A DNA stretch of 64,000 nt from a phage, in the NCBI GenBank assembly GCA_018093385.1, contig GCA_018093385.1_4808.1. One strand, 5' to 3'. Shown here piece by piece: positions 38,933-56,790 of this stretch (positions are counted from its first letter, which is position 1; each line of letters opens with the position of its first letter). A program made the position numbers and the translations under genes. The notes beneath the pieces are model-generated. The model made no database searches, was not told the origin of the DNA, and worked only from the letters and a program-made list of their open reading frames with translations.

Positions 38933-39910
38933 TTAAAAATACTCCATATCGGTAATATCACGGAAGCATTTATACAAAGCAGAGCGCGGCACATCAACAA
39001 TGCCAAAGTTAAAGAATTTATACGTTAGATATTTATCGCGATAGTTCTCGCGATTCTCCCAAAGCATTTTTCTCTCTGCCATAGGCATTGAACCAGCGGA
39101 TACGCGGAAAGGAATCATCTCACCTTTTTCATCCACATATTTTGGATTGACGACTACGAATGAGCCAAGGTGTCCTTTCGCAACTAAACCTTCAGCCTCT
39201 TTTGAACGCTTGGTGCGACCCAATTCGTCAATGAATGCTTCGTTGTTGTTCTCCATCATCTCAACGAAGTCTATGATCAATCCTTCTTCATCGGTCCACG
39301 GCTTGTCCTTCCACACATCACGTGACTTCGGCGTCGCGCGGCCATGCTTGTATTTGCCCGTCCAAGACTTGCCATACAAGCCTTCATATCCAAGCTGGTC
39401 TGCTTCGATTTGCATCGCCGCGTACTGTTCCATATTTTCGATGTTTCGATATTCGAGAGCGCGAAGGAATGGGCGTCGACCATGGTTGATGAGATGTTGA
39501 TTAACTTCAGCAACTCTAGCTCGATAGTTTGCATAACGCTTTTCAAAAGGCAGATCAGGTTCGCTAAAGTCATCAAACACCCACCATGTAAAGTTAGTGA
39601 TTGCATCAGTGTTCATGCATGCAGTATAGGCCTGTTGCATGACGTTCTTGTCATTTGGATTGCCGTCGATTAGCTCTCCATCAAGTCCGTGAATTAATTC
39701 ACCCAAGAAGAGGAACTCTTTTTTGATTTGAATGTTGCGCAGCGCCATGCCGGACGTGCCCATTGGCAAGTTGTCATACGCCATTGCGCGTATGCCATCG
39801 ACCTTGAATGACAATCCGCAAGGCAGCGGCACGTCTTCGCCGCGCTCGATTATTTGCTTACGCTGGCAACCCTTCATTGGTTTTAATGCTTTGATTTCTC
39901 CTGCCATCAC
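38933..39910 (-). CDS. ATP-dependent DNA ligase
   Basis: Nucleotidyltransferase motif I KVDGIR; AAGGAG SD. Confidence 0.7.
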   Translation of the reverse strand: MMAGEIKALKPMKGCQRKQIIERGEDVPLPCGLSFKVDGIRAMAYDNLPMGTSGMALRNIQIKKEFLFLGELIHGLDGELIDGNPNDKNVMQQAYTACMNTDAITNFTWWVFDDFSEPDLPFEKRYANYRARVAEVNQHLINHGRRPFLRALEYRNIENMEQYAAMQIEADQLGYEGLYGKSWTGKYKHGRATPKSRDVWKDKPWTDEEGLIIDFVEMMENNNEAFIDELGRTKRSKEAEGLVAKGHLGSFVVVNPKYVDEKGEMIPFRVSAGSMPMAERKMLWENRENYRDKYLTYKFFNFGIVDVPRSALYKCFRDITDMEYF

Positions 39911-40500
39911 TCAAACTCCTTATTCATCACTTGTTCCAGCGCATAGGCGTAAGCCTGATCAGTCGATTTGATAAACGTGCCGTTGTACATGACGCCTTTG
40001 CGGTCTTTGATGTCTTCGTAGGCAGCTTGCGCACAGTCGGATAAGCGAAGGCCATAATCATGAGCTACGCCGGAAAGGTAATCGACTGCGGCCATGATGG
40101 TGACGTCAATATCCATGGTTTGATTCTTGGCAATAGCATCACCAAGTCGTCCAAGGGTCTTTGCCAGGCGAAGGATAAATGAATGAGGGTGAGCGCCTTT
40201 ATCAGCGCAACCGCCGCCATTAATGTTTTCGATTTCAGCACCGTTTTGCGCTGCCAGGATGGTCAACACGACAAGGCAATCGCCAATGTCGTCCTTAATT
40301 GCGGCTTGCAAGTCACAGATGGCCTGCTCTGTATATCCAATTTCGGGGTCGAAGAACACAAGGTCATGGAGTTGATCAACGTGGTCGGTCAACTCCCCAA
40401 ACTCGCTGATAAGCTTCGGGTATTGGTCCTTAAGGTCGCAACCTTGGATGATGTTACGGTCAGAAGCCCACTGGCGAATGTTTGCATAAATCTGGTTCAT
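39907..40500 (-). CDS. MazG-like nucleoside triphosphate pyrophosphohydrolase (putative)
   Basis: EFGELTDHV...DIGDCLVVLTILA and RLAKTLGRLGD segments resemble MazG helices. Confidence 0.45.
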   Translation of the reverse strand: MNQIYANIRQWASDRNIIQGCDLKDQYPKLISEFGELTDHVDQLHDLVFFDPEIGYTEQAICDLQAAIKDDIGDCLVVLTILAAQNGAEIENINGGGCADKGAHPHSFILRLAKTLGRLGDAIAKNQTMDIDVTIMAAVDYLSGVAHDYGLRLSDCAQAAYEDIKDRKGVMYNGTFIKSTDQAYAYALEQVMNKEFE

Positions 40501-41072: not shown

Positions 41073-41933
41073 TTAAAACTCTTCTGCGTCGGCAGGAGTT
41101 TCATTGACAGGACCAGCGGCACCGCTTGCTTCTTCCTGCTTGCTGCGGTCGATGTTAACGTTGCCGCCCACTACGTCATTGTGGAATGCCTTGGCGACTT
41201 CGTACAGACCTTTGTCCTGCACCAGACCTTCCAGCTCAAACTTCAGAACGGACCAGGTGTTGCCGTCTTTGGACTGGGATGCAGTACCCATGCGAACGAT
41301 GTTCATAAAGGTCGGCGGCGTTTTCAAACCTTGCGGAGTTTGAACTTTCTTCTGCTGCAGCGCGGTCATCAGCATACGAGACGGCTTGATCATCGAAGAA
41401 GTCAAAGACAGCATGGCGCTGCCAAATTCACCCGTTTCTTCGTTCAACAGAATCACGAAGTGGTTACGTGTATCTGCATAGTAAGGAGATTTCTTCTCGT
41501 GCACTTTGCCGTTTTCGTCCGGCACAAATACCTTACCGTTGATCTCAACAGCGCGGCCTGCCGCGACTTCTGCATCAACGTGCTCTTTGGTGAATTCACC
41601 TTTAAAGCCTTTGTCGTCGGACTCGCGACCGCCCCAAAGAATGAAGGTACGTTTGAATGCGCAAGGGATGATCTGCACGCCTTTCTTACCGTCATACAAC
41701 TCACCAGTAACGGTGTTGTAAAGCATGCCAGCTTTTGCGCCAGGAACGTGTTTTGGATCATCTTCGTCGACCATAGGAGACATCTTCTGCAGTACGACGA
41801 TAAAAGGAATGGCATATGCATCGGCATCGGCACCTTCAAAACCAGCGCCAAAATCGGTCATGTCGACAAAATCAGCCATAGCGGACATCTGGGTGTTTTT
41901 CACTGCAACTTCGGTAGTTTCTTTCTTAGACAT
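41073..41933 (-). CDS. Putative ssDNA-binding/recombination protein with acidic C-terminal tail
   Basis: C-terminus ETPADAEEF (acidic, terminal Phe, as in SSB and T7 gp2.5 tails); replication-module context. Confidence 0.35.
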   Translation of the reverse strand: MSKKETTEVAVKNTQMSAMADFVDMTDFGAGFEGADADAYAIPFIVVLQKMSPMVDEDDPKHVPGAKAGMLYNTVTGELYDGKKGVQIIPCAFKRTFILWGGRESDDKGFKGEFTKEHVDAEVAAGRAVEINGKVFVPDENGKVHEKKSPYYADTRNHFVILLNEETGEFGSAMLSLTSSMIKPSRMLMTALQQKKVQTPQGLKTPPTFMNIVRMGTASQSKDGNTWSVLKFELEGLVQDKGLYEVAKAFHNDVVGGNVNIDRSKQEEASGAAGPVNETPADAEEF

Positions 41934-41992
41934 TTGATATTTTCCTATAGTATCAAGTTTCGTGGCAACCTGATTTCAAGATAAAGGTTAAA

Positions 41993-42550
41993 TTACTTTT
42001 TGCTTTTAGGCAAGGTTATTTTAGCTTCTTTGTATTCAAAAACGCTAATATCTTCACTAACTGGATTGCCTGCTTCCAGCTGTTCTTTTACAAATGACTT
42101 CAGTGTAGCAGAATGAACGCCTTGTTTCAATGTGGCTTCAACACCATCTTCACGCAGCGCGGCAACAATCTCTTGCGCCTGTTCGATTTCTTCGCGACCG
42201 AACTCAGCCGTGACGCTGGACTTGATCAGGCCGCCGTAACCGTTGTTGACAAGCCAATCGAAAACTTTTAATTCGTTTTCTTTCTTGATCGAAGCATTCA
42301 CCTTGGACTCGACCTTGATTTTGGTCTTGTCCTCAAGCTTGATCTCAGACACGCCAAGCTCATCCATAACGCCAGGAAGCAGAACAGTTTTGATTTCACT
42401 GATTCGCTGCTTTTGCATATCAGCTTCATCTTCAAGCTCTGTCAAAGCTTCTTGGCGTTCTGCCAGTTCAGATACTAAGCGCGCAAGGCGCTCTTGAATG
42501 CTCTCAGGAGCGACCTGCGGCAAATCATCTTCCCAATTAATATTGCTCAT
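41993..42550 (-). CDS. Hypothetical coiled-coil protein
   Basis: 185 aa, GAAGG SD. Confidence 0.45.
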   Translation of the reverse strand: MSNINWEDDLPQVAPESIQERLARLVSELAERQEALTELEDEADMQKQRISEIKTVLLPGVMDELGVSEIKLEDKTKIKVESKVNASIKKENELKVFDWLVNNGYGGLIKSSVTAEFGREEIEQAQEIVAALREDGVEATLKQGVHSATLKSFVKEQLEAGNPVSEDISVFEYKEAKITLPKSKK

Positions 42551-42884: not shown

Positions 42885-44408
42885 TTAATTCATCTTTTTG
42901 CCGTCGAGGATGTGATCAGCAAGCATAGATTTCATGCTCAGTGAACGCTGAATTTCTTCGTCGATGGTATCAACACCAATAAAATCAACATACAGCACGC
43001 TTGATTTGGTGCCGATGCGGTGATTTCGGTCTTCGGATTGTTTGCGCAACTCGTTGTCATAGTTGCAAGAATAATAGATTGCCAAGTCGGCGGCGGTAAG
43101 CGTGATTCCGATGCCTGCCGCTGCAGCGTGACAAACCAAGACTTGCGTTCCACCGTTCTCGACTGTGTTTTTCTGGAAGTCATCAATCAAGAACTCGCGC
43201 TGCTCTTTTGATGTTTCACCGTTGTACACACCAGTGACCACGCCTTCAGACTCAAGCCAATCCTTAATCTGGTTCATCTCTTCCTTAAAGATGGCCCACA
43301 CAATGAATTTGCGCTCTGGGTCGTCTTCCAGCACCCCTTCCACATAGTCCTTAAAGGCCGTGAATCGTGGGTTGTCTTCCATGTAGACCATCTCATCATA
43401 CACCTTAACAAAGCCTGATGTCACCTGCTTCATCTTAGTGCGAGATGCGATCATCTCAAACTTAACGTTTTCTTCTTCGCCTTTGTACTCCATCAGATAG
43501 TTGTACTCATTCTTGAGTTCATCGTAAACATCGCGTTGTTTAGGCGACAACTCGAAGTCAATAAACTTGTACACCTTCTCTGGAAGGTCCGGCAAGTATT
43601 CCGCTTTTGTCGCACGAAAATAGTGCGGTTCCATCAGCCGGATAAGCTTGTCAAGGTTCTTGTACATCGGTCGGCCAAACTGGTCTTTGCGCGGCACTTG
43701 CGGAATCCCATAGCCATTGCCGCCGATTTTCTTGAGAATGGCCTGCATCTCTGGGTCGTGCGCTTCAAGTAGCACTGTGAATTCAGAGTTGAATGCACGG
43801 AACGATTTGGTGCCAAGCAAGCCAGCTTCAAGGAAGTGGTATTGCATGTAAATATCAGCAGGCGAGCGTGGCAGCGGCGTACCAGAAAGGATTCGACGGG
43901 CCTTTGCCAGCCGTCCCAATTCCACAACCTTGATGGAGCGTTTGGCTGTGTTATTTTTGATACGCGTCGATTCATCAATGATCATCAAACAGCGGTATTT
44001 CTTCAAGACCGACTCAATGTGTTGATAACCGACTGGTGTGTTGACGGTGTCAATGTTGAATGAGAAGATGCGCGCAGGCACTTCGCCTTCAGGGTAGTGA
44101 TCAGCAAACATCTTCTCCCAAAGCGCCTTGCCCTTTTTAGTCTTCATCTTGTCATTGCCGCGCCAGTAATGACCAATCCATTTAATGGAAAGGTGCTCTG
44201 GTGCTTCACGACGAATCCAGTTTGAGTGTACACCGTTAGGAGCGATTACAACCATGGCATCAAACGCGCCAGCAGTGAAATGCTTTTCAAACTCTGCCAA
44301 AGCAGTCCAGGTTTTGCCAAGACCCTGTTCCATGAAATAGGCAAAGTATTTTCTGCGGCCTGCTTTATCAAGCGCCAATAATTGGTGGCGCATTCCTTGT
44401 GTTTTCAT
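42885..44408 (-). CDS. SNF2-family helicase
   Basis: GLGKT Walker A, DEST Walker B-like, helicase C-region. Confidence 0.8.
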   Translation of the reverse strand: MKTQGMRHQLLALDKAGRRKYFAYFMEQGLGKTWTALAEFEKHFTAGAFDAMVVIAPNGVHSNWIRREAPEHLSIKWIGHYWRGNDKMKTKKGKALWEKMFADHYPEGEVPARIFSFNIDTVNTPVGYQHIESVLKKYRCLMIIDESTRIKNNTAKRSIKVVELGRLAKARRILSGTPLPRSPADIYMQYHFLEAGLLGTKSFRAFNSEFTVLLEAHDPEMQAILKKIGGNGYGIPQVPRKDQFGRPMYKNLDKLIRLMEPHYFRATKAEYLPDLPEKVYKFIDFELSPKQRDVYDELKNEYNYLMEYKGEEENVKFEMIASRTKMKQVTSGFVKVYDEMVYMEDNPRFTAFKDYVEGVLEDDPERKFIVWAIFKEEMNQIKDWLESEGVVTGVYNGETSKEQREFLIDDFQKNTVENGGTQVLVCHAAAAGIGITLTAADLAIYYSCNYDNELRKQSEDRNHRIGTKSSVLYVDFIGVDTIDEEIQRSLSMKSMLADHILDGKKMN

Positions 44409-44827
44409 TACAATTCCTCTAAATACTTGATGATGTGATGAATAGTTCCCTTCACGATTATCTCACGTTGAACGTCTGCAGTATTATAACGCTTTAATTC
44501 AATAGAAGGGTGGACTAAATAAAACATCTTCTCAGAATCAACCTTAAGCAGAACAAATGATGGGTATTTCCAATCATTCCACGAAGAAAGAAAGCTGCAT
44601 TGGCCTTTCTCAAATGCATTTCTGAAAGGTGCAGTGGTGGCCCTTGCAGGCCACGATTCAAAGAACTTCATTTCAAGCCAAAAGCCGCGCCCTTTCCGGT
44701 TGGTGCCGATTACGTCCGGCACGCCATCGCCCGTCATTGACTCGATTCGTTGAAGCTTCAATACCGATTCTGAATGCTTCTTCAAAGGCACGAATATGTA
44801 TTTCTGCTCACGGTTATTTGTTGCCAT
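44408..44827 (-). CDS. VRR-NUC domain nuclease
   Basis: GVPD...LEMK PD-(D/E)xK-type motif; adjacent to SNF2 helicase. Confidence 0.6.
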   Translation of the reverse strand: MATNNREQKYIFVPLKKHSESVLKLQRIESMTGDGVPDVIGTNRKGRGFWLEMKFFESWPARATTAPFRNAFEKGQCSFLSSWNDWKYPSFVLLKVDSEKMFYLVHPSIELKRYNTADVQREIIVKGTIHHIIKYLEEL

Positions 44828-47711
44828 CTGGATACACCTGTTTGATCACGTCAACGATGAACATATCAATGCCTTCAAGCTTGCGACCTTTCATCAGGAA
44901 GAATGCGCCGTTCCCGACGTTTTCAGCGATGTACTTCCCGTACTTCTGGAACTTCTCTGGACGAATCCTGAAGCGCATTGGCGAGTCGGTCGAGTCGTCT
45001 TTGCACATAAGGTCGATGAACTGAGTCTCAAGCTTGTTCCCGTACTGGTCAAACTCTGCGTAGCGGCCATCAGCTTGAAGACCCTTTTTAAGCTTGCCGT
45101 GCTTTGTATAGATGCCGCGCTCAAGTCGTTTACGGATGCGTGTTGCTTCGTTCTCGTCCGCAAGCACTTTCTTTGTCAACTTGCCGATTACTATTGCGCG
45201 CTCGTCATCACCGACTTCCTTCATCTGGCGTATTGAAGCGCCGGACGTCACACCAATCAGATACGGGTCATTATACGCCCAGCCGAACTTTGTGTGCATC
45301 TCTGTAAGGTCGCCGTATTTTACTTCAGCATTGGCCAATGCGTCCTTTTGCTTCTGCGTTAAGGTTCCGGCTTCACGCGCTTCGATATACTTCATCGCTT
45401 TCACCATGCCGTACCCTTTCGCATTCATGATGCCGCCGATTAGCTTTCCGTTCGCGATGGTCCAGTTCATTGAAGAGTGATCAGGGTCGATTGGCACATA
45501 ATCCACACCTTCCTTCGCAAGTTCACGTAATATCGCAATCGTCTGGTCTTCGTCCTTAGCAGCGCGTAAGCAGGCTGCGGCAAATTCCAACGGGTAGTGT
45601 CGCTTAAGCCACAAGGTCCAGTAGGTCACGACCGCGTATGACACGGAGTGTGACTTGTTAAAGCCCCATGACCCGAACGTGGCCATCGCTTGCCAAAGCT
45701 TTCTTGCATCCGCTTCCGGTACGCCGTTATTGATTGCGCCTGCAACAAAGTCCTCGCCAAGCTTGTTAAAGTATTCTTCACCCTTACGGCCTGACATCGC
45801 CTTACGCACAGCTGACGTTTTCGCCCAGTCAAATGAACCAATCTCTTTAACCACGGCCATGATTTGCTCTTGGTAAAGAAACACGCCGTAAGTCTCTTTC
45901 AAGTACGGCTCAAGCTGCGGCACGTCGTACTCAATCGGCGCACGTCCTGCCGCGCGTTCAATGTATTTCTGGGCCATACCGGATGACAACGGGCCAGGTC
46001 GACCCAAAGCTGTCAGGTTGTCGATTTTGTTAAAGTTGTCGACGTGCACAAAGTTTGTTACTGAGCGTACAGCATCACCTTCAAACTGGAAGATGCCTGA
46101 CATCTTGTTTTCGTTAAGAATGTCAAGGACGCTTTGATCATCAAGTTTGATTCCGTAGAGCGTTTCAGCATCAATAACGCCTGTATCAGAAATAATGCCG
46201 AGAGTACGAAGGCCCAGCGCATCAAGCTTCAAAAGGTTGAGGTATTCACTGTCAGGCTTATCGATTTGCGCAATCCCTTCTGCAGTTACAGTACAGTAAT
46301 CAGAGATTGGGTCATTACACACAATGATGCCCGCTGCGTGAACACCTGTGTGAGACGGGTGAATCTCAAGGTCACCCATGCAACGCGCGGCGTCAGGATA
46401 TTTCGCCACGAACTCTTGGCCCGTGGTCGTTGTTGCAAAGGTATCCTCCAGGCCGTGACCATAACGGGCGTCACCGGATGAGTATTCAAGCAATGCGTTT
46501 TTAATGTTGGCCGTTTCGTGGTATCCAATGTTGAACTTCTTACCAACCTGCGCCATTACTGAGTTGGCCTTAAGAGTGTTGATGTTGCCAAGCTTCGCAA
46601 CGTTCATTTCGCCGTATTTCTCTTTAAGATAATCAAACACCATATAGCGTTTGGTATCTTCAAAGTCGATGTCGATGTCAGGAAGGTCGGCGCGGCTTAC
46701 GTCGATGAATCGGGCAAACAGCAGCTTATACGGGATTGGGTCCACTTCCGTGATGCCGAGGCAATAGCAAACAAGTGAACCGGCCGATGAGCCGCGAGCA
46801 GGACCGACGAGCATTTTTGTTTTTGCGAATCGTACAAGGTCCGCTACTACCAGAAAGTATGAGTCGAAATCTTTCAGCTGAATCTGGTGAATTTCTTCGT
46901 TGAAGCGGTCCTCGTATTCCTGAGTCCATTCTTTGATGTGACCTGCTTTTAGACGGTACTCCATGCCCTCGCGAGCAAGCTTTACCATGTCACCAGCAAG
47001 TTGAATAATCGGTGCCTTACGCAATTTCAGGTCAAGTCCGACTATGCCGTTTGCTATGTCAACAGCATTGGCCGTTGCCTGATTGAGCTCGTCTTCAGTC
47101 AAGATGCCTTTAAGCTGTTTGCGCAAGTCTTCCGAGTCAACGATGCAGTGCGGCTTGACCGTGTCGCGCACTTCCCAAGCATAAGCGAAGTCAACGTGCT
47201 CAGGAGAAGGCATGTGATTGTATCCGGTTAAAACCAGCGGCCTTCCGTTGCTGCGGTGAGCCAACACCTGGCGCTTAGCCAAAAGGAACGACGATGGGTT
47301 GACGTCTATATAGTCGTAGTCCTCTGGCCGCAGCAGCTCCACGGCACCGCCACAGAATTTAACGACGCCATCAAGCGCACCGAACTCTGCACGGGTAAGC
47401 CCACCGCGCTGCGTTGAAAGTGTTGTAGCGTTGTAAAAAGATTTTAAGTCAAGGGCCAATATCCAAGCCTTCGGTTTGAATCCCTTTTTAGGGTCCGCAT
47501 CAGGGTCGATGATTGGAATCTCCATTCCAAACATAGGCTTAATATCATTTTTCTGGCATTCCTTTTCCCAGCGAACGTGACCCCATGTGTTGTTATCAAC
47601 TAATGCCGCGACTTCGCAGCCCAACTCTTTGAGCCGTGCTATAATTTCAGGATGCCGTCCATAAACTTCTTTGAACGTGTAACCGCTGCGAACTCTCAAT
47701 TGTGGAAACAT
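44814..47711 (-). CDS. dnaE: DNA polymerase III alpha subunit-like replicative polymerase (DnaE-like, PHP domain)
   Basis: 965 aa; PHP-like N-terminus, DIDIDFED segment, polymerase core. Confidence 0.75.
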   Translation of the reverse strand: MFPQLRVRSGYTFKEVYGRHPEIIARLKELGCEVAALVDNNTWGHVRWEKECQKNDIKPMFGMEIPIIDPDADPKKGFKPKAWILALDLKSFYNATTLSTQRGGLTRAEFGALDGVVKFCGGAVELLRPEDYDYIDVNPSSFLLAKRQVLAHRSNGRPLVLTGYNHMPSPEHVDFAYAWEVRDTVKPHCIVDSEDLRKQLKGILTEDELNQATANAVDIANGIVGLDLKLRKAPIIQLAGDMVKLAREGMEYRLKAGHIKEWTQEYEDRFNEEIHQIQLKDFDSYFLVVADLVRFAKTKMLVGPARGSSAGSLVCYCLGITEVDPIPYKLLFARFIDVSRADLPDIDIDFEDTKRYMVFDYLKEKYGEMNVAKLGNINTLKANSVMAQVGKKFNIGYHETANIKNALLEYSSGDARYGHGLEDTFATTTTGQEFVAKYPDAARCMGDLEIHPSHTGVHAAGIIVCNDPISDYCTVTAEGIAQIDKPDSEYLNLLKLDALGLRTLGIISDTGVIDAETLYGIKLDDQSVLDILNENKMSGIFQFEGDAVRSVTNFVHVDNFNKIDNLTALGRPGPLSSGMAQKYIERAAGRAPIEYDVPQLEPYLKETYGVFLYQEQIMAVVKEIGSFDWAKTSAVRKAMSGRKGEEYFNKLGEDFVAGAINNGVPEADARKLWQAMATFGSWGFNKSHSVSYAVVTYWTLWLKRHYPLEFAAACLRAAKDEDQTIAILRELAKEGVDYVPIDPDHSSMNWTIANGKLIGGIMNAKGYGMVKAMKYIEAREAGTLTQKQKDALANAEVKYGDLTEMHTKFGWAYNDPYLIGVTSGASIRQMKEVGDDERAIVIGKLTKKVLADENEATRIRKRLERGIYTKHGKLKKGLQADGRYAEFDQYGNKLETQFIDLMCKDDSTDSPMRFRIRPEKFQKYGKYIAENVGNGAFFLMKGRKLEGIDMFIVDVIKQVYPDGNK

Positions 47712-48253
47712 TATTTACTCCAGATGTCATATACGCCAATTTGTTGGCAGACTTTGTGCAGTAATATTACGTCGTCTAATGCACGGTGCTTCTGTTCATA
47801 TTTTCCGAAATATAATTCATACAGCTCTTGAAGCTTAACTCTTCGGCCAAAAATAGGCAAGGTTTGCTCAACTGTACATATGTTTATTTCTGGAAAATTA
47901 ACATCATCAAGCGTAAGTCCTTCGCGCTGTAGTGCATAATCAAGAATGTTTTTATCGAACGCATGGTTGTGCGCGATAGTTGCATCAGTCTTCTTGAAGA
48001 TTTCTTTTAGCTGCGGGACGAAATTGATGAACGGTGGATTGCACTCAAGGTCTTCATTTGTTAATCCGGTAATCTTTGTGATGATTTCTTCGATCACGAT
48101 TTCAGGATTAATTATGAATTCAAACGTTTCAAGAATCTCTTTGCCGTCTGTCAGCAAGCCTGCAAATTCAATAGGGCGCGGCTGCATTCCAAGCGGCGCT
48201 TTCGGGTGCACGGTTAATCCGGTTGTTTCGAAGTCATAAGGGAGAAATAACAC
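47711..48253 (-). CDS. DnaQ-like 3'-5' proofreading exonuclease (GTG start)
   Basis: Exo motifs YDFETTGL, HNHAFD, HRALDD; AGGAGG SD. Confidence 0.75.
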   Translation of the reverse strand: MLFLPYDFETTGLTVHPKAPLGMQPRPIEFAGLLTDGKEILETFEFIINPEIVIEEIITKITGLTNEDLECNPPFINFVPQLKEIFKKTDATIAHNHAFDKNILDYALQREGLTLDDVNFPEINICTVEQTLPIFGRRVKLQELYELYFGKYEQKHRALDDVILLHKVCQQIGVYDIWSK

Positions 48254-48263
48254 ATTGGCCTCC

Positions 48264-48292
48264 TACAAAAAGGCCGCCCATTAGGACGGCCA
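48264..48292 (-). terminator. Rho-independent terminator between the enzyme island and the exonuclease gene
   Basis: GGCCGTCC-loop-GGGCGGCC followed by TTTTTG on minus strand. Confidence 0.55.
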
Positions 48293-48307: not shown

Positions 48308-48859
48308 TTATACAGTGTACGGAGTACCGTCTTGATTTAAGCGCACGATAAACTTCAAATCAACGCCGATGATTTCACGCGTATCAAAGATCACATAGTT
48401 GTAACGACGTTGACCAGCAATGTTCGGGTTGGTATGAGAGTCAGTTACAACTTCCTGTGCAACCTGAATACCTTCTTCGCTAAAGAACTTACGCCATTCA
48501 GCAAGTTCAGCGGCAGTCACGTGCATACCAAGGTGGCTGACCTGATTGTCATGCGCATCGATATATTCGATGTTTTCGTTAATCCAGTTGCAGCCCATTG
48601 TGTAGTCAAGGATTTCAAGCTCAAGAGGCTTACCAGCGCCGCCATCAGTACCGTTGCCAGCCTGATAGTTGAAGCGCAAGTCAGCTTCATTGGTGCAATC
48701 GTCGCGACGACCTTTAAAGTCATCAGCTTCAAATACGCGACCAGTAGCAACAACATGATCATGGAACCATTCTGTCAGGCCGATTTTAGCCAAGAAATCC
48801 TGTGCGCGCTGAGCATCTGGAATTGACAGGGCGATTTGTTCAATTTTAAAATGTGGCAT
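48308..48859 (-). CDS. VOC-fold (glyoxalase/dioxygenase-like) protein, putative
   Basis: Two beta-alpha-beta-like modules; weak motif-level call. Confidence 0.35.
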   Translation of the reverse strand: MPHFKIEQIALSIPDAQRAQDFLAKIGLTEWFHDHVVATGRVFEADDFKGRRDDCTNEADLRFNYQAGNGTDGGAGKPLELEILDYTMGCNWINENIEYIDAHDNQVSHLGMHVTAAELAEWRKFFSEEGIQVAQEVVTDSHTNPNIAGQRRYNYVIFDTREIIGVDLKFIVRLNQDGTPYTV

Positions 48860-48955
48860 TTTGTTTCCTTAATTAAATATTATTGATTAATTACTGTGTT
48901 GTCTTCGTCCTGTTTCTTTTCAGGAGCGGGTGTGACAACTTCAAATGTTCGTGAT

Positions 48956-49639
48956 TTATTTACCAAATGGAATATCAGTACCAGACATAAAGCGCCATGC
49001 GCCTGTAATTAAGATATGGCGAATGAAGTCAGCAATTACTTGCGGCTCAGTCTCCAATCCATTCATCAATGCCTTTTTCTGGTATTCAGCGGCGTATTCA
49101 GGAGTCCAGCCGCGAGTCGCGCAAACTGCATCTTCAATCTGTTTAGACATGCCAGTGCCGCGCAACTTGTTAGGACTAATAGAGAATACCGTGATGCCGT
49201 ACTTAGGCGTAAGTTCGTGAGCCATCTGCTTGCTGATCATAAGCGCAGCGGCCTTGGATGCATTATAACACAAGCTGGACGTCATAGGAATATGCGCAGC
49301 GTTGGAAACGATGTTGATCACAAAGCCTTTGTTGTCGATAAGACTTTTCAGCGCAGCCTGAGTCGTGTTAACGAAAGAGAATGCGTTGGTGTGCATAACG
49401 CGGTTAAACTCTTCATAGTTTACATCTTCAAACCAATTGTTAGAGTTGACACCAGCACAGTTGATCAAGCCTTCAACATCATATGGGCTTAAAATTTCTT
49501 TCATCTGTTTAGCATCGCGGACGTCATATCCGTATGCTGAATCGATGCCAAGCACGTTATGACCGTAAGCGCCAAGGGTGTCAAAAATAGATTTACCAAG
49601 ACCGGAATTGGAACCTGTTACAACAATTACTTTTTTCAT
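48956..49639 (-). CDS. Short-chain dehydrogenase/reductase (classical SDR)
   Basis: TGSNSGLG, NCAG, YNASK motifs. Confidence 0.7.
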   Translation of the reverse strand: MKKVIVVTGSNSGLGKSIFDTLGAYGHNVLGIDSAYGYDVRDAKQMKEILSPYDVEGLINCAGVNSNNWFEDVNYEEFNRVMHTNAFSFVNTTQAALKSLIDNKGFVINIVSNAAHIPMTSSLCYNASKAAALMISKQMAHELTPKYGITVFSISPNKLRGTGMSKQIEDAVCATRGWTPEYAAEYQKKALMNGLETEPQVIADFIRHILITGAWRFMSGTDIPFGK

Positions 49640-49660
49640 TTATTTATCCTTTTTGGACTT

Positions 49661-49704
49661 CGTTTCGATGAGGTAAATATAACTCATCGAAACGCACAAG
49701 TAAA
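49661..49704 (-). promoter_or_regulatory. Promoter TTTACT-N17-TATATT with 12-bp perfect inverted repeat (49661-49672 / 49683-49694) centred on the -10
   Basis: Read directly on minus strand upstream of SDR gene. Confidence 0.5.
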
Positions 49705-50580
49705 CTATTTATTGAAATTAATATTATGGGTGTTTACAAGACGTTCACACATGGCGCTATAAACACCATCGTCGTGTATTGAGTCTTCGTGCTTCAGGCC
49801 GCTGATTGCGAAGCGTGTAAGCTTGACAATCTTAAGCTCGAACAGATGCCACATGTGGTAGTCTTCCGGTGTTTTCAGCGTCACGCCATTAGGGAACAGT
49901 ACCTGCATAACCTGACCTACCATCACAGCGTTATCGCCATAGACAGCGTTGCGCTCACGGAAGGTCGCGGCCATCGCATCAAGAATATCGGCGGCGGTTG
50001 CTGGGCCTTGTGGTTCAACTTCAACAACTTTAGTCTCTTCTTTCCCTGTTGCGCTTGGATCAACTGCTAATTGCTGCACCATTTCACCTGCCTTGCAAAG
50101 ATTAAATGTAAAAGCGATTTTATTTTGAGCAACGGAATTATAATACAAGGCTTCATCTTGCATCGCCGCGAGTACGTCTTGTCGGTCGTCGAATACATTA
50201 ATGATTCGATAATCGCCGTGCCGCAAAGCGTGCGATAGCCATCCAGATTTCATAATAGTTGATGGACGTTTGTCGCCAGAGTCTCTCATCTTGATTGTAA
50301 ATTCATCAAAAGGGAAAACATTGTCCAGACGTTCAAAAGTCACTTGTCTGTATTTTTCTGGCCTTGCAGTCCAATATTCAACCGCCTCACCGCGAAGAGA
50401 TGCCGACTCTACTGCTGATGCAATGTGAGGATAGAACTGATCATAACCAATACCGCTGTGATAGTCATCATAGTCTGACAACGGACCTGCCACCTTGATG
50501 CGGTCTAAGCGCCAACGGTCATCAAACAGCGTTCCGTCAAGGTCGAATACGTTTAAGATTTCGCTGTTTTTAATGCTCAT
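49705..50580 (-). CDS. HAD-superfamily phosphatase-like protein with uncharacterised C-terminal domain
   Basis: HAD motif I DLDGTL near N-terminus. Confidence 0.5.
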   Translation of the reverse strand: MSIKNSEILNVFDLDGTLFDDRWRLDRIKVAGPLSDYDDYHSGIGYDQFYPHIASAVESASLRGEAVEYWTARPEKYRQVTFERLDNVFPFDEFTIKMRDSGDKRPSTIMKSGWLSHALRHGDYRIINVFDDRQDVLAAMQDEALYYNSVAQNKIAFTFNLCKAGEMVQQLAVDPSATGKEETKVVEVEPQGPATAADILDAMAATFRERNAVYGDNAVMVGQVMQVLFPNGVTLKTPEDYHMWHLFELKIVKLTRFAISGLKHEDSIHDDGVYSAMCERLVNTHNINFNK

Positions 50581-51380
50581 CCTTTTGATACTCCATCTTT
50601 AGCAACTGGATTGTTGGTGATTGGCATTGCACTCCAAAACTGGATGCGCAACTCTTCTTGCTGTGCCGTGGTATCCATCCAATCACGATACCAAGGGCAA
50701 TGGGCTTTGCCATGACGAGGAAACGCGCACTTACCCATACCGATGCACTGGGGCTGTAGTAAAGGATTGGCCCACGGGTGCACCTTAAGGACTTCCGCAA
50801 CCATTGCACGGAATACTTCTTGATACTCGCCTTGAGTACGCGTGCACAAGCGGTTAGAGGCCATTTGTTGCAGAGTGCGCAAGTTGAACTTTGCCATGAT
50901 ATGCGTTTGCATATTAGAAGGCAACACGGCACGTGCATCTTGAATCTCTGCGCCAGCCGCGCGAAGTTCTTGGTATAGGGCGTCAATGGTTGCCATTGCA
51001 TCATCCCATTTCTCTGCCAGTTCAGCAGCCTTCTCGTCATGACGAGTCCATCCCTTTGGATCATCCTCTGGGTAAGTAAATTTGGCAGGACGAATCGCAT
51101 CAAATGCTGACGACTCCTGAGCGCGGCTTGTGCGTTCTTGATATGCACCTGTGCGTGTGCGCACCATCTGATGAGTCATATTCTTTGATACATCAGTGAT
51201 GTCAAAGATATAGTCCACAAAGTCAAAAGGCGACTTGATTGTATCAAGCATGTAGCGCCAGTGCTCTTGCTTCTCTGATTCTGTCATCTCAGAGACTGGC
51301 TTACCAGTCATGCGCGTGTTCTTTGTTTCCAGCAAAAGGTCAAGTGCATCTTGGGTGTATCGAATTAATTCAACTTTCAT
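50577..51380 (-). CDS. thyX: Flavin-dependent thymidylate synthase (ThyX-like)
   Basis: VRTRTGAYQERTSR resembles the ThyX RHR...S...R signature. Confidence 0.55.
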   Translation of the reverse strand: MKVELIRYTQDALDLLLETKNTRMTGKPVSEMTESEKQEHWRYMLDTIKSPFDFVDYIFDITDVSKNMTHQMVRTRTGAYQERTSRAQESSAFDAIRPAKFTYPEDDPKGWTRHDEKAAELAEKWDDAMATIDALYQELRAAGAEIQDARAVLPSNMQTHIMAKFNLRTLQQMASNRLCTRTQGEYQEVFRAMVAEVLKVHPWANPLLQPQCIGMGKCAFPRHGKAHCPWYRDWMDTTAQQEELRIQFWSAMPITNNPVAKDGVSKG

Positions 51381-51905: not shown

Positions 51906-52901
51906 TTATTTATTAGCAATATAAGCAAATTTTTGATAGTTATTTGCTTTGATGAGTTTTTCAACTTCAGCAAGGTCATGAGCGACGTCATCAAGCAAAA
52001 TGTTTCGCCAAGTAGCGAATCGACCGACACTAAATACGTTCAAATCCATAGTCAACTGGAGCAGTAAGGCGTGGCGCAAGTCTTTCGGAATGTCGACAAT
52101 TTTGCCATACTTCTGGTCAACCTTTTCAACTTCTTCCAAAGAGATGTCATTCCATGAAAGACCAAAAGCGGTAAGAACTTCATCCACTTCTGCACGCAGC
52201 TTCATGTCGCGATAACGGGTAATGCCGCCAGCGGCTTCAACTGCTGCCGCGCTGACGCTTACCAATGGAATTGTTTCAATGATCAGCGTGTCACCAGTGA
52301 TTGATGCGCGGTAAGTCCTTACAGAATAGTCAGGGAAGTAAATTGTTTGATAAAGTTCACACTTGCGCTTAATCTTAAAACGATAAACGCGAATATTTGC
52401 CTTATCAAACGAGAAGTCGAGCTTTTGATCAATACCAGCAAGCTTCATCATGACTGGCAGCGGCGATGTGTTGATGATTGGCGTCTCGCTATAGCCGCAA
52501 AGCGTGTCGACCGGAGTATTAAAGAATATACGGTCACCCAGTTTATCGACAAGTTGATCATAAAAGTCATCCGGCGCTATGTAGCGCGTAGCAGTTTGAA
52601 GCTTCATGATTGAGCGGCTGCCAAACTGGTTGGTGACTTTCATAGAGTACATATTGGCAAGGTTAATCGGGCAGTGGCCGTGATAGTAGTTGCCACGAAA
52701 ATACACAGCCTTATCGACTGTCACGGCCTTAAAGGGGATTCCGGTAATACGGCTTACTTCTTCGCCGCGAAATCGTAGCAGCGCCTTGTGCTGCGCGACG
52801 CGTTCGCCTGCTTCGTACACAATAGAGTTCGGAAAGTGACAAGCCGTGATAAGTCCTGCCAGTCCGCCGCCGATAATCATTACAGGTTGTTTCATGTTCA
52901 T
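51906..52901 (-). CDS. FAD/NAD(P)-binding oxidoreductase (UDP-galactopyranose mutase / amine-oxidase-like fold, putative)
   Basis: N-terminal Rossmann IIGGGLAGL; C-terminal GRFATWRNILLDDV resembles the family tail. Confidence 0.5.
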   Translation of the reverse strand: MNMKQPVMIIGGGLAGLITACHFPNSIVYEAGERVAQHKALLRFRGEEVSRITGIPFKAVTVDKAVYFRGNYYHGHCPINLANMYSMKVTNQFGSRSIMKLQTATRYIAPDDFYDQLVDKLGDRIFFNTPVDTLCGYSETPIINTSPLPVMMKLAGIDQKLDFSFDKANIRVYRFKIKRKCELYQTIYFPDYSVRTYRASITGDTLIIETIPLVSVSAAAVEAAGGITRYRDMKLRAEVDEVLTAFGLSWNDISLEEVEKVDQKYGKIVDIPKDLRHALLLQLTMDLNVFSVGRFATWRNILLDDVAHDLAEVEKLIKANNYQKFAYIANK

Positions 52902-53034: not shown

Positions 53035-53877
53035 TTATTCTGCTTGATCGTCGTGCTCTTCGGCATCTGCTTCGGATTCAACATCGATGAACTCGATGTG
53101 GCCCATCTCTTCCAGTTTGCTCAGGTAAGAGCGAACTGAAGCGCCAAACAGCTGATCTTTAACTTTTTCACCCAGCTCGTCGATAGACTGCGGCTGACCG
53201 ATTTCACCTTCTTTGATCGCAGCCAGTACGCGACCACGGGTGGAATGTTCTTGCGGCTGGCTCAGGCCGTTTCCGGTGTAAACAAAGTGAGTTGCTTTAG
53301 CGCGACGCTGACCATTAGCTTTCTTGGCGGCTTTACGCTCTGCAATCGCTTTGCGACGCTCTTCAGCTTCTTTCTTACGCTGTTCTTTCTGTTGTTCTGC
53401 AGCTTCTTTCGCCGCGATCTTAGCAGCTTCACGCTCTGCCTTGCGTTTCGCTTTCGCTTCTTCTTTAGCCTTTTCTTTTTCGGCTTTCGCTTCTGCACGG
53501 GCCTGATCACGTTCAGCCTTTTTCGCCGCAGCTTGTTCAGCTTTCAGGCGCTTGGCTTCTTCTTTCGCCTTTGCCTTTTCAATTTCTTTAGCGGCTTTAG
53601 CGGCTTCACGCTCTGCCTTCTTAGCAGCAGCCTTTTCAGCACGCTCTGCAGCCTTCTTAGCGGCTTCTTCAGCACGCTTCTGAGCCTTCTCGTCAGCAGC
53701 CTGCTTGCGTTTCAGCGCAGCTTCTTCACGCTTGGCTTGTTTTTCCTGCTCACGCTTCTGGCGTTTTTCTTCGGCTTCTTTCTTTTTAGCCAGGCGTTTT
53801 TCTTCAGCCACGCGACGACGTTCTGCTGCGGCTGCTTGTTTTTCTTCTTTAGATAATACTTTGATTGCTTCGGCCAT
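53035..53877 (-). CDS. Lys/Ala/Glu-rich low-complexity protein with globular C-terminal domain
   Basis: About 190 aa of KAE repeats then about 85 aa of normal composition; ATG 53877 has AAGGA SD (ORF track 53883 is GTG). Confidence 0.5.
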   Translation of the reverse strand: MAEAIKVLSKEEKQAAAAERRRVAEEKRLAKKKEAEEKRQKREQEKQAKREEAALKRKQAADEKAQKRAEEAAKKAAERAEKAAAKKAEREAAKAAKEIEKAKAKEEAKRLKAEQAAAKKAERDQARAEAKAEKEKAKEEAKAKRKAEREAAKIAAKEAAEQQKEQRKKEAEERRKAIAERKAAKKANGQRRAKATHFVYTGNGLSQPQEHSTRGRVLAAIKEGEIGQPQSIDELGEKVKDQLFGASVRSYLSKLEEMGHIEFIDVESEADAEEHDDQAE

Positions 53878-54036
53878 ATTCACAGTCCTTAAATAAATTA
53901 GTTTATTTTATATTCCCCGTTTGGGATAACTTAATTATGCCTTCAGTCGCCGCCAGTAGCAACTAAAAACTATGGCGGCAATGCCACTTTAATTAAACTG
54001 ATTTTCAGTTTTATTTTTCGTAAATTTACGTCAACA

Positions 54037-55221
54037 TTAACGCGCTTTCAAATCACGGTACACGGTCAGATTCTTCTTAGCACGGGTGATAGCGGTGTAC
54101 ATCATCTTGGAGTACGGAACGCCGCGCAAGATTTCTTCCAGCACGCACACATTGTCCCACTCGCTGCCTTGCGATTTGTGCACCGTGATGACATAGCCAT
54201 AATCCATCCCGCCAACAGCGCGTTGGGCCTCTTTGCGCACTTCCTGATCAGTAGAGAAGGAAAGAGGATTAATCTTAACCTTTATATCTTTGCCATCGGT
54301 AAGCGAGCGCAAATTGACATACATGATTTCATTGGACTCGTCTTCGTCCCTTTCAAAGTCCGGCACTGGCTCATAGCTAATAACAATCCCTTGCTCGCCA
54401 TTACAGAATCCTGGCCCGTGCTGGTTGAAGGTGCAAATAACTTTCTCGCCGATTCCTGGCATTGGCGTTATACGTCCGCTCACTTGCCGTAATAATGAAT
54501 TCCATTTATCTTTGGTGCTATTATAGGAGCAAATAATTTGATCATCTTCGCCCATGAATTTCTTCAATGCAGTAACGCGCGGCGATTCTGCCAATACTTT
54601 GACGTCATCGTATTCACGCGGAGGAAGGCGGTTGCCTTGGCGCACGAAGAAGGAGGCGCGGATTATATTGGACTCTTTCCCTTGCCGCATGATTTCTGTT
54701 AACAGTACGTCAACGGCTTCTTCGGTAAAGTAGGCGGCGGCTTTTACCGGAGGGACTTGTCCAATGTCGCCTAATGCCAGCACAGGGATGCGGTGATCAA
54801 GAAGGCGCTCTGTGTCCCACTCGCCAACCATCGACGCTTCATCGAGTACAACAAGGTGCGGCCTTTCGTCCAGTTTTGACTTTCTCGAAAAGATTGGCTC
54901 ATTGTCGTCATTTACGCCGCGCACGTTATAGATGAACTGGTGAAGGGTCTTAGCGCCACGACAGCCTTTTTGCTTTAATCGGCTTGCAGCCTTTCCGGTC
55001 GGCGCAATATAGATAGCGCCGTACTCACCGACACAGCGGCGCACAATCTCGCGAGCAATAGAGGTTTTACCAGTCCCTGCATAGCCAGCGATGAAAAACA
55101 CGCGCTTCGTCGTTTTACCGTCCTGCAATCGCTTGTACCATGCAACGGCTTTCTCGATGGCGTCGATTTGTTGCGCGTTAAACTGAATCACTGGCTCATC
55201 ATTAAATTCTGGAATGTTCAT
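54037..55221 (-). CDS. SF1B helicase (Dda/RecD-like)
   Basis: Walker A GYAGTGKT, Walker B VVLDEASM, GDIGQVPP, TVHKSQGSEWD. Confidence 0.8.
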   Translation of the reverse strand: MNIPEFNDEPVIQFNAQQIDAIEKAVAWYKRLQDGKTTKRVFFIAGYAGTGKTSIAREIVRRCVGEYGAIYIAPTGKAASRLKQKGCRGAKTLHQFIYNVRGVNDDNEPIFSRKSKLDERPHLVVLDEASMVGEWDTERLLDHRIPVLALGDIGQVPPVKAAAYFTEEAVDVLLTEIMRQGKESNIIRASFFVRQGNRLPPREYDDVKVLAESPRVTALKKFMGEDDQIICSYNSTKDKWNSLLRQVSGRITPMPGIGEKVICTFNQHGPGFCNGEQGIVISYEPVPDFERDEDESNEIMYVNLRSLTDGKDIKVKINPLSFSTDQEVRKEAQRAVGGMDYGYVITVHKSQGSEWDNVCVLEEILRGVPYSKMMYTAITRAKKNLTVYRDLKAR

Positions 55222-55707: not shown

Positions 55708-56790
55708 ATGGCTAGTTTAAGAGAAGAAGCAAAAATAATTGAAGAGTTTTTAACAGAACTCCAAAGAGGCATCCCAGAAGATGAGCGCGTCATGACGGTG
55801 TTTGCTCCTGAAGCAACGGTGCAGACTGATGAGCGCGGCAAGAAGATCAACAGCAGCTTCTGGCCTAAGCCTTGGAAGTTGGGCAAGCCGCTCATGCAGC
55901 ACCAAAACGGCTATGCGTGCATCAGTTCAATGCGTAAGGCTCCCAACCCAAAGACGGGTGAGATGCGATACTGGCGTACAGAGTCAGCCTTTGGTCACGG
56001 CATGGCGATGATGGTCGACGACATCGGTCACGGTAAAGGGTCCAAAGGCGATTTAGATTTGGAATTCTTTTTTGAGCGACTGAAGCCGACTGTCATCGTC
56101 GAGACTTCACCGAACAATCACCAGCTTTGGTACTTCTTTAAAGAACCGATTGACCATCTTATTCAGTTCAAAGCGTTCCTTGGGTCTTTCGTTAACATGG
56201 TACTCAAGAAGGGCGGCGACAACACGATTAAAGACGTAACGCGCGTGGGTCGTGTTCCTGGGTGCATCAACAACAAGCGTGTGACTCACGACGGCCCCTA
56301 TAAATATGTCGATGAGAACGGCGACCCGTTCCGCTGCCGACTTGTCCATGCAGACTACTCATTGCGCTACACCATCGAAGACATTTGTCAGGCATTTGGC
56401 TTTCACGTCGTCATGCCGCAAAAGCGTGAAATTCAAATTGACGTTGATGAATACAAATACGACGCTGTTTGGTATAAGATAGCCCAGCAAATCCTTGCGC
56501 GCAATAAGATGGGCGAGGGGTCTGATGGCGATGTTGTTGAAAACATGTCGGGCAAGTGCCGCATCATCTGTCCTTGGGGTGAAGAGCATACCAACGGCGA
56601 CCCGTATGGCGCTTACTTTCGCGGCCCTATCCCTGGTGCAGAACATGAGTTTGTGTTCGGTTGCGCTCACGACTGTCACCGGAAAGGGGAAGGCAAGAAA
56701 GGTTGGACTGCTTTTGTTGAAGCAATCGTCATGCCTTATATTGAGAATCAACTTGACATGATAAATCGTCGTGCAGGTGGCATAAAATAG
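55708..56790 (+). CDS. Primase-polymerase (archaeo-eukaryotic primase-like) with Cys/His-rich C-terminal region
   Basis: Motifs MVDDIG, SPNNHQLWYFF, RVPGCINNK; C-terminal CPWGEEH...CAHDCH. Confidence 0.6.
   Translation: MASLREEAKIIEEFLTELQRGIPEDERVMTVFAPEATVQTDERGKKINSSFWPKPWKLGKPLMQHQNGYACISSMRKAPNPKTGEMRYWRTESAFGHGMAMMVDDIGHGKGSKGDLDLEFFFERLKPTVIVETSPNNHQLWYFFKEPIDHLIQFKAFLGSFVNMVLKKGGDNTIKDVTRVGRVPGCINNKRVTHDGPYKYVDENGDPFRCRLVHADYSLRYTIEDICQAFGFHVVMPQKREIQIDVDEYKYDAVWYKIAQQILARNKMGEGSDGDVVENMSGKCRIICPWGEEHTNGDPYGAYFRGPIPGAEHEFVFGCAHDCHRKGEGKKGWTAFVEAIVMPYIENQLDMINRRAGGIK

Follow-up and report, generated by a model that had tools for sequence, protein, structure and literature searches.

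A compact DnaE-type DNA polymerase and an adjacent DEDDh exonuclease as the probable replicase core of a Wifcevirus phage

DNA polymerases of family C, the bacterial replicase type, are rarer among phages than those of families A and B (PMC11348598; PMC4889955). Published counts amount to 6560 enzymes for PolA, 2857 for PolB and 947 for PolC (PMC11348598), and by our count 2.5% of phage records (1267 of 50,697) contain a family C polymerase. The closest described systems are pairs of such a polymerase with a small exonuclease: both genes are listed for the Wifcevirus group of phages (PMC7048862), and the corresponding pair of Pbunavirus has been described as homologues of the alpha and epsilon subunits of DNA polymerase III (Pol III) (PMC12390725). 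Here we analyse one such pair on the reverse strand of a 64,000-nucleotide stretch of phage DNA (NCBI GenBank assembly GCA_018093385.1, contig GCA_018093385.1_4808.1), referred to below as the window. The pair is already known: dozens of GenBank genomes carry annotations for it, and papers on Wifcevirus and Pbunavirus mention it by name. Wifcevirus records label its members 'DNA polymerase III alpha subunit' and 'DEDDH exonuclease' or 'DNA polymerase exonuclease subunit', and the PB1 record (NC_011810) already contains a '3'-5' exonuclease'. What is added here is an account at the level of domains, which describes a dead PHP domain, a single helix-hairpin-helix (HhH), a retained OB fold, the absence of a clamp motif and of a C-terminal domain, and a tail-less exonuclease. 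We consider it likely that the two proteins constitute the phage's own minimal replicase core, in which the polymerase synthesizes DNA, independently of a sliding clamp, and the exonuclease proofreads.

Two features of the better studied enzymes frame the comparison. The loss of metal ligands from the PHP domain co-evolved with a separate epsilon-type (DEDDh) exonuclease (PMC3666897; PMC12926913); the nine ligand positions are occupied in Escherichia coli by R10, H12, D19, F44, D69, H83, G134, D201 and R203 (PMC3666897). In addition, the C-terminal segment of epsilon tethers this subunit to the PHP domain of alpha, where an epsilon-binding patch comprising K63 and a Trp pocket has been defined (PMC3919608).

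All sequence and structure comparisons place the large protein of the window in family C. In Pfam it matches DNA_pol3_alpha (PF07733; residues 243-500, E = 3e-63, 214 bits against a cut-off of 23.9) and DNA_pol3_finger (PF17657; residues 519-663, E = 1e-37, 129.5 bits against 22), and PHROG 405, 'DNA polymerase', covers it from end to end (1e-270). A phmmer search of PDB sequences aligned residues 211-798 with residues 255-872 of E. coli alpha and residues 257-784 with residues 373-914 of Thermus aquaticus (Taq) alpha, both at E ~1e-85, a level also reached by the Mycobacterium tuberculosis (Mtb) alpha subunit. An AlphaFold2 (AF2) model built from an alignment with 85 homologues (pLDDT 87.9, pTM 0.82) returned Mtb DnaE1 and the alpha subunits of Taq and E. 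coli at the top ranks of Foldseek (E = 1e-42 to 6e-50), with Mtb DnaE1 7pu7 as best match (E = 6e-50, TMq 0.75), followed by 2hpi and 3e0d; PolC structures came far behind (E ~1e-26). In NCBIfam only the superfamily model TIGR00594 is passed (475.9 bits against 434.35). The DnaE equivalog NF004226 yields 496.6 bits where 1002 are required, the remaining DnaE equivalogs are likewise below their cut-offs, the DnaE2 model NF004225 gives 331 bits against 939, and the PolC equivalogs give 41-45 bits against 873-1043. As only the superfamily level is reached, the protein is a homologue rather than an orthologue of cellular DnaE; it is closer to DnaE than to PolC by Pfam, PHROGs, NCBIfam, PDB sequence search and Foldseek alike. 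Residues D345, D347 and D484 align with the catalytic D401, D403 and D555 of E. coli DnaE (taken from NC_000913.3), H688 is the equivalent of H760, and all four are invariant in the 85 homologues. By alignment and model, the protein is a family C polymerase of the Pol III alpha, DnaE type with an intact active site.

These results agree with a sequence-only reading of the stretch, which had proposed a bacterial-replicase-type polymerase, shorter than cellular DnaE and of a kind less frequent in phages than families A or B. The five approaches just named bear out the type, and the profile search for another polymerase family, fixed beforehand as the refuting check, returned family C. The length and coordinates given there agree exactly with the listing of open reading frames (ORFs), and the 965 residues compare with 1160 in E. 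coli DnaE. The PHP domain that it had named is real; the sequence match is marginal (PF02811, residues 5-96, E = 8e-06, 26.7 bits against 26.4) and is backed by the fold model, in which the N-terminus resembles 4gx8 and 4gx9, two PHP-epsilon chimeras from E. coli (Foldseek, E ~1e-7 to 1e-8).

The PHP metal site has been lost. At the nine ligand positions the phage polymerase has R6, R8, E15, N40, E64, K81, G122, H166 and P168, and the 85 homologues show R, R, variable, variable, E, variable, G, D and P. The only canonical ligand in the window's phage is E64, to which most relatives add D166, making one or two out of nine. With at most two canonical ligands, a site more degenerate than that of E. 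coli, the PHP domain cannot act as a nuclease. Residue 166 itself (ligand position 8; window positions 47214-47216) is His here and Asp in 79 of the 85 relatives; the change is minor and lineage-specific and affects a site that is degenerate in any case. A K58-P59 pair is present at the position of the E. coli epsilon-binding patch, and the Lys column is variable across the family.

Beyond the polymerase core, the HhH region aligns with E. coli GIGAIKGVGEG and contains the invariant residues G759, G760, I761, N763, A764, K765, G766 and G768; the segment that carries the second HhH of E. coli is deleted in the alignment. No canonical clamp-binding motif was found: AEVKYGDL, at the position of E. 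coli QADMF, has neither Gln nor a hydrophobic residue at position 4. The polymerase contains no conserved Qxx[LM]F apart from QEQIM in the core, which E. coli shares, and no clamp motif at the C-terminus, where the tail is variable among the 85 homologues. A regular-expression scan also picked out QFIDLM (residues 897-902), which resembles the delta-type Qxx[SD]LF; it was rejected as a clamp motif, being a core beta-strand of the OB fold in both AF2 models. This OB fold lies C-terminal to the clamp-motif position and was recognized by structure comparison alone, the last 178 residues having no Pfam match even at E = 5. The tau-binding C-terminal domain is absent, as the protein ends ~5 residues past the last OB strand and E. 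coli alpha continues for ~80 residues more. Coordinates of these and other features are collected in Table 1.

Table 1. Position of the polymerase-exonuclease pair, its domains and signals, and the other replication-related genes in the window
Feature	Position	Strand	Details
Exonuclease ORF	47711-48253	-	180 amino acids (aa), GTG start (ORF listing)
Polymerase ORF	44814-47711	-	965 aa, ATG start (ORF listing)
Exonuclease/polymerase junction	47709-47721	-	GGAG, 6 nt, ATG overlapping TAA stop (TAATG)
PHP domain, reduced, metal site lost	46992-47711	-	aa 1-240; alignment to E. coli DnaE
Polymerase core (palm, thumb, fingers)	45477-46991	-	aa 241-745; D345, D347, D484, H688
Single helix-hairpin-helix region	45327-45476	-	aa 746-795; GGIMNAKGYG at 759-768
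Helical linker	45210-45326	-	aa 796-834; AEVKYGDL (795-802) at E. coli QADMF position
C-terminal OB fold	44832-45209	-	aa 835-960; basic insertion ~853-896
Terminator-like GC-rich hairpin and T-run (TTTTT)	48267-48291	-	8 pairs, 7 GC; pattern match only
139-aa ORF	44408-44827	-	overlaps polymerase 3' end by 14 nt
SNF2-family helicase/translocase	42885-44408	-	507 aa; SNF2-rel_dom 8.6e-22, Helicase_C 5.8e-11
ATP-dependent ligase	38933-39910	-	
MazG-like	39907-40500		label from Bas101 annotation only; no Pfam match here
HAD-PNKP phosphatase-domain protein	49705-50580	-	
ThyX (flavin-dependent thymidylate synthase)	50577-51380	-	
Dda-like SF1 helicase	54037-55221	-	
RepB-type AEP primase	55708-56790	+	
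VapE/D5-like helicase	58101-59771	+	

The small protein matches Pfam RNase_T (PF00929; residues 6-165, 9.6e-22, 78.7 bits against a cut-off of 24) and PHROG 192, 'DNA polymerase exonuclease subunit' (2e-37). Its catalytic D7/E9, D100 and H156/D161 correspond to D12/E14, D103 and H162/D167 of epsilon and make up the motifs Exo I (DxE), Exo II (D) and Exo III (Hx4D); among the 120 homologues listed, these DEDDh residues are conserved. Of the PDB sequences, the exonuclease domain of Thermotoga maritima PolC (2p1j) matches best. In the alignment with E. coli epsilon the protein ends at the equivalent of residue ~186, leaving epsilon 187-243 with no counterpart, and it scores 43.8 bits against 222.7 with TIGR01406 (dnaQ_proteo), 37 against 71.5 with TIGR00573 and 59.9 against 236 with NF004964. 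As judged from these alignments, it is a DEDDh (DnaQ-like) 3'-5' exonuclease consisting of the catalytic domain only, and not an epsilon orthologue. The standalone epsilon-like exonuclease of the sequence-only reading therefore stands as far as the catalytic domain with all five residues is concerned, and not with respect to the epsilon tail and the epsilon thresholds. The conserved adjacency of the two genes, their co-distribution and the lack of any other proofreading site suggest that this enzyme serves as the proofreader of the polymerase.

The two ORFs are far beyond chance by their Pfam E-values (3e-63 and 1e-37 for the polymerase, 1e-21 for the exonuclease), and homologues of both run to thousands. 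At their junction, which reads ...TGG AGT AAA TAA TG TTT..., the exonuclease TAA (47713-47711) and the polymerase ATG (47711-47709) have one A in common, and a GGAG at 47718-47721 precedes the ATG by 6 nt. Translational coupling, already proposed from the sequence, is reasonable from this geometry; the TAATG overlap is what is seen, and the coupling would follow from it. The GTG start of the exonuclease has its own AGGAGG at 48259-48264, at a spacing of 5 nt. The stop/start overlaps continue throughout a tightly packed block of four genes, exonuclease, polymerase, the 139-aa ORF and, as its last member, the SNF2 helicase, the start of which overlaps the stop of the 139-aa ORF (TAATG). Directly upstream of the exonuclease ribosome-binding site, between it and a VOC-like gene, lies the terminator-like hairpin. 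A promoter and terminator scan of the region gave site counts not above those of shuffled sequences, and only the hairpin, there at 48272-48291, was distinctive by its strength. Given this position, the four-gene block would need read-through or a promoter of its own that has escaped recognition.

The source is an E. coli phage of the genus Wifcevirus: the 3.4-kb locus shares 94-97% nucleotide identity with the E. coli Wifcevirus myophages SP13, F13, Bas98-101, vB_Eco4M-7, WFC and FEC19, and the FEC19 polymerase is 99.7% identical in protein sequence to that of the window. The order exonuclease, polymerase, small ORF and SNF2 helicase is kept, with overlapping or abutting junctions, in Pbunavirus PA4 and in Kylevirus (Kyle), where the exonuclease/polymerase junction is a 4-nt overlap and a 1-nt gap, respectively. 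Full-length orthologues of the polymerase were found in 374 phage records and orthologues of the exonuclease in 359, with the same host distribution. The other ~900 family C records, including those of actinophages and of Bacillus and Rhizobium phages, have a core match only and no exonuclease orthologue. A search at metagenome scale retrieved more than 5,800 polymerase homologues; the top 120 are mostly ~930-1000 aa long, and many lie on contigs of 60-74 kb. Some polymerases of the family are ~250 aa longer, among them P0115 (1232 aa) and P0095 (1215 aa). P0115 contains an intein-splicing domain (PF14890), which indicates that inteins have invaded this type of phage DnaE in some lineages; P0095 has no intein match.

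A search for clamp and clamp-loader genes, which the sequence-only reading had put forward as a check, found none. Neither these nor a single-stranded DNA-binding protein was detected by Pfam or PHROGs in the 27 ORFs of the window's non-structural region, and neither DnaB nor DnaG among its replication genes. This accords with published work in which the clamps and loaders of phages are found mainly in larger genomes (PMC4889955). One 'clamp loader' line at 0.00067 proved to be a side-match of the P-loop of the Dda-like helicase. Two further ORFs of clamp-compatible size, of 331 and 282 aa, were considered and judged not to be clamps; the former has a GxGxxG start and no PDB match. In Bas101, a relative whose complete genome is annotated, the layout is the same and a single DNA polymerase is listed.

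Family, fold, both active sites, the degenerate PHP domain, the domain losses and the conserved pairing are thus directly supported. In the mechanism that we propose, the compact DnaE-type polymerase, laid out as an inactive PHP domain, palm, thumb and fingers, one HhH and an OB fold, would synthesize DNA, with the OB fold and the HhH contacting it, and the DEDDh exonuclease, produced from the same transcript and in step with the polymerase, would remove misincorporated nucleotides. The polymerase would work with the AEP-type primase, the VapE/D5-like helicase, the SF1/SF2 helicases and the ATP-dependent ligase of the phage. Because the PHP metal ligands are lost, the separate exonuclease is the only candidate proofreader, a role in keeping with the reported co-evolution between the loss of PHP ligands and a separate DEDDh nuclease. 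Since the polymerase has neither a tau-binding domain nor a canonical clamp motif and neither clamp nor loader was found in the phage, the polymerase probably does not join the Pol III holoenzyme of its host in the way that E. coli alpha does. That the two proteins associate physically, that the exonuclease proofreads in vivo, that translation is coupled and that the polymerase is independent of the clamp are inferred from these observations.

Several points weigh against the proposed replicase core. Experiments on this protein pair, including biochemistry, were not found in the literature searched; the residue that corresponds to K63 of E. coli alpha, a contact for epsilon, is not conserved across the phage family; and the window does not include the last ~4-8 kb of the genome, which are covered through the annotation of a relative only. 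Moreover, the alignment with E. coli shows no clamp-binding motif, Q-linker or alpha(PHP)-binding helix of epsilon in the exonuclease, which also falls below every epsilon equivalog and subfamily cut-off of NCBIfam. With neither the tail nor these scores, a role independent of the polymerase is possible, if quite unlikely: the polymerase would be the replicase, and the 180-aa nuclease would, for instance, degrade host DNA or RNA, process primers or ends, or destroy nucleotide-based defence signals. Its best NCBIfam and PDB matches, generic DEDD or PolC-type exonuclease domains, are compatible with such a function, whereas the position of its gene, immediately upstream of and overlapping the polymerase gene across genera at 56-68% identity, its confinement to the lineage of this polymerase subtype, and the lack of another proofreading site in a polymerase with a degenerate PHP domain all speak against it. 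That the polymerase is itself an accessory error-prone or repair enzyme of the DnaE2 kind, and not the phage replicase, is very improbable. It is indeed a non-orthologous DnaE homologue below the DnaE1 equivalog cut-offs, but the DnaE2 model gives 331 bits where the DnaE1 model gives 497, and misses its own cut-off by far, imuA and imuB are not among the neighbours, the gene lies within a replication module with the DEDDh exonuclease, helicases, primase and ligase, and no other DNA polymerase is annotated in Bas101.

Clamp independence faces a rival of its own, in that the polymerase could, like cellular DnaE, form a clamp-dependent holoenzyme by borrowing the beta clamp and loader of the host through a non-canonical motif, an arrangement otherwise compatible with the pair as replicase core. 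We regard this as possible but unlikely. An aromatic-x-x-Leu is kept at the QADMF position ([FY]799, D801 and L802, the last invariant), and phages with genomes this small usually have no clamps of their own (PMC4889955); yet motif positions 1 and 4 hold no Gln or hydrophobic residue, a C-terminal clamp motif is missing, QFIDLM is buried in the OB fold, the tau-binding domain, through which alpha is coupled to the clamp loader, is absent, and the exonuclease, too, lacks the clamp motif of epsilon. The replicase core that we favour may be carried one step further, to a self-sufficient two-subunit family C replicase independent of both clamp and tau, in which the tail-less exonuclease docks on the polymerase through a new interface, different from the contact of epsilon tail and PHP in E. 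coli, and processivity is provided either by the OB fold and its basic insertion or by coupling to the SF3-like (VapE/D5-type) helicase and the AEP primase of the phage. This extension is tentative and we hold it to be rather doubtful; if true, the replisome would be a bacterial/archaeo-eukaryotic hybrid, and the very short cycle of infection that has been reported for Wifcevirus might in part be accounted for (PMC7048862; PMC11990801).

Downstream of the polymerase, the 139-aa ORF matches PHROG 2165 (2.6e-35), which is labelled 'DNA helicase'. It has no Pfam, NCBIfam or PDB sequence match, and profiles hint weakly at RecU alone (E = 0.13); its motif GVPD...(13 aa)...EMK, typical of PD-(D/E)xK (VRR-NUC/RecU-like) nucleases, suggests that it is such a nuclease. 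Since the ORF is too small for a helicase and contains a nuclease-type motif, the label is probably a propagated mis-annotation. Near the SNF2 helicase, at 41073-42550 (-), two ORFs match the Pfam families 'Pam3 gp34-like' (4e-86) and 'Pam3 gp33-like' DUF7307 (3e-37), both named after a cyanophage.

Directly upstream of the exonuclease, a metabolic-looking run of genes at 48308-51380 (-) extends from a VOC/glyoxalase-like gene (sub-threshold, E = 0.004) to ThyX and includes an SDR/FabG-like reductase and the HAD-PNKP phosphatase-domain protein; it might have a role in nucleotide or DNA modification. Farther upstream, the 331-aa ORF (51906-52901, -) begins with MKQPVMIIGGGLAGL, a GxGxxG dinucleotide (FAD/NAD)-binding motif, and has no match in Pfam, NCBIfam or PDB. 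It is a core gene in 362 records of PB1-like and Wifcevirus phages, nearly always annotated as 'hypothetical', and, judging by this motif, may be a flavoenzyme encoded near ThyX. The 282-aa ORF (53035-53883, -) matches phage proteins over residues 190-268 only, a conserved C-terminal domain of ~80 aa, and relatives have it under various labels, namely 'TolA-like', 'structural protein' and 'transcription initiation factor'. The replication genes combine a bacterial-type family C polymerase with an archaeo-eukaryotic-type RepB/AEP primase, a VapE/D5-like helicase, a Dda-like helicase and an ATP-dependent ligase, giving the replisome a hybrid appearance. No tRNA genes and no Rfam families at the gathering threshold were detected in the 64-kb window.

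With the genes themselves known, the residual value of the pair lies in its being a naturally minimized family C replicase, a 965-aa DnaE without tau and clamp modules together with a 180-aa tail-less exonuclease. The source phages are easily grown on E. coli and are now in the BASEL collection. Biochemical work on the pair could reveal how proofreading and processivity of the Pol III type are achieved without the scaffolding of a holoenzyme, and how such a polymerase cooperates with a primase and helicase of archaeo-eukaryotic type.

Among phages, the Wifcevirus members WFC, WFH, FEC19, vB_Eco4M-7 and Bas98-101 have essentially the same genes in the same architecture, diverging by a few percent. 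The polymerases of Pbunavirus (PB1-like, Pseudomonas phages) and Kylevirus share 58% and 66% amino acid identity with that of the window, and the exonucleases 56-68%. The Pbunavirus polymerase is ~50 aa longer (a 3111-nt gene, matched by tblastn in two pieces) and comes from phages of another host genus.

The Pol III core of E. coli (alpha DnaE1, epsilon DnaQ and theta) shares with the phage pair the polymerase fold and the catalytic triad, as well as a variant PHP domain that does not bind metal, an HhH motif, an OB fold and a separate DEDDh exonuclease. Compared with cellular DnaE, as the sequence-only reading had advised, the phage polymerase is 195 aa shorter than E. coli alpha, with a smaller PHP domain, one HhH instead of (HhH)2, no clamp motif of the QADMF type and no tau-binding C-terminal domain. 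Likewise, its exonuclease differs from epsilon in having no clamp motif, Q-linker or alpha-binding helix, and theta, clamp and clamp loader are not encoded by the phage. The DnaE1 enzymes of T. aquaticus and M. tuberculosis are the best structural matches of the full-length model, but they proofread with a PHP domain that has kept the nine ligands (Taq: PMC3666897), in contrast to the phage enzyme, which retains ~1-2 of nine and is accompanied by a separate DEDDh nuclease. PolC of Firmicutes has the family C core in common with the phage polymerase, and PolC-type exonuclease domains are the best PDB and NCBIfam matches of the phage exonuclease. In PolC, however, the exonuclease is inserted inside the PHP domain and the OB fold is N-terminal, whereas in the phage the exonuclease has a gene of its own and the OB fold is C-terminal, and the Foldseek E-values of PolC are ~20 orders of magnitude weaker than those of DnaE.

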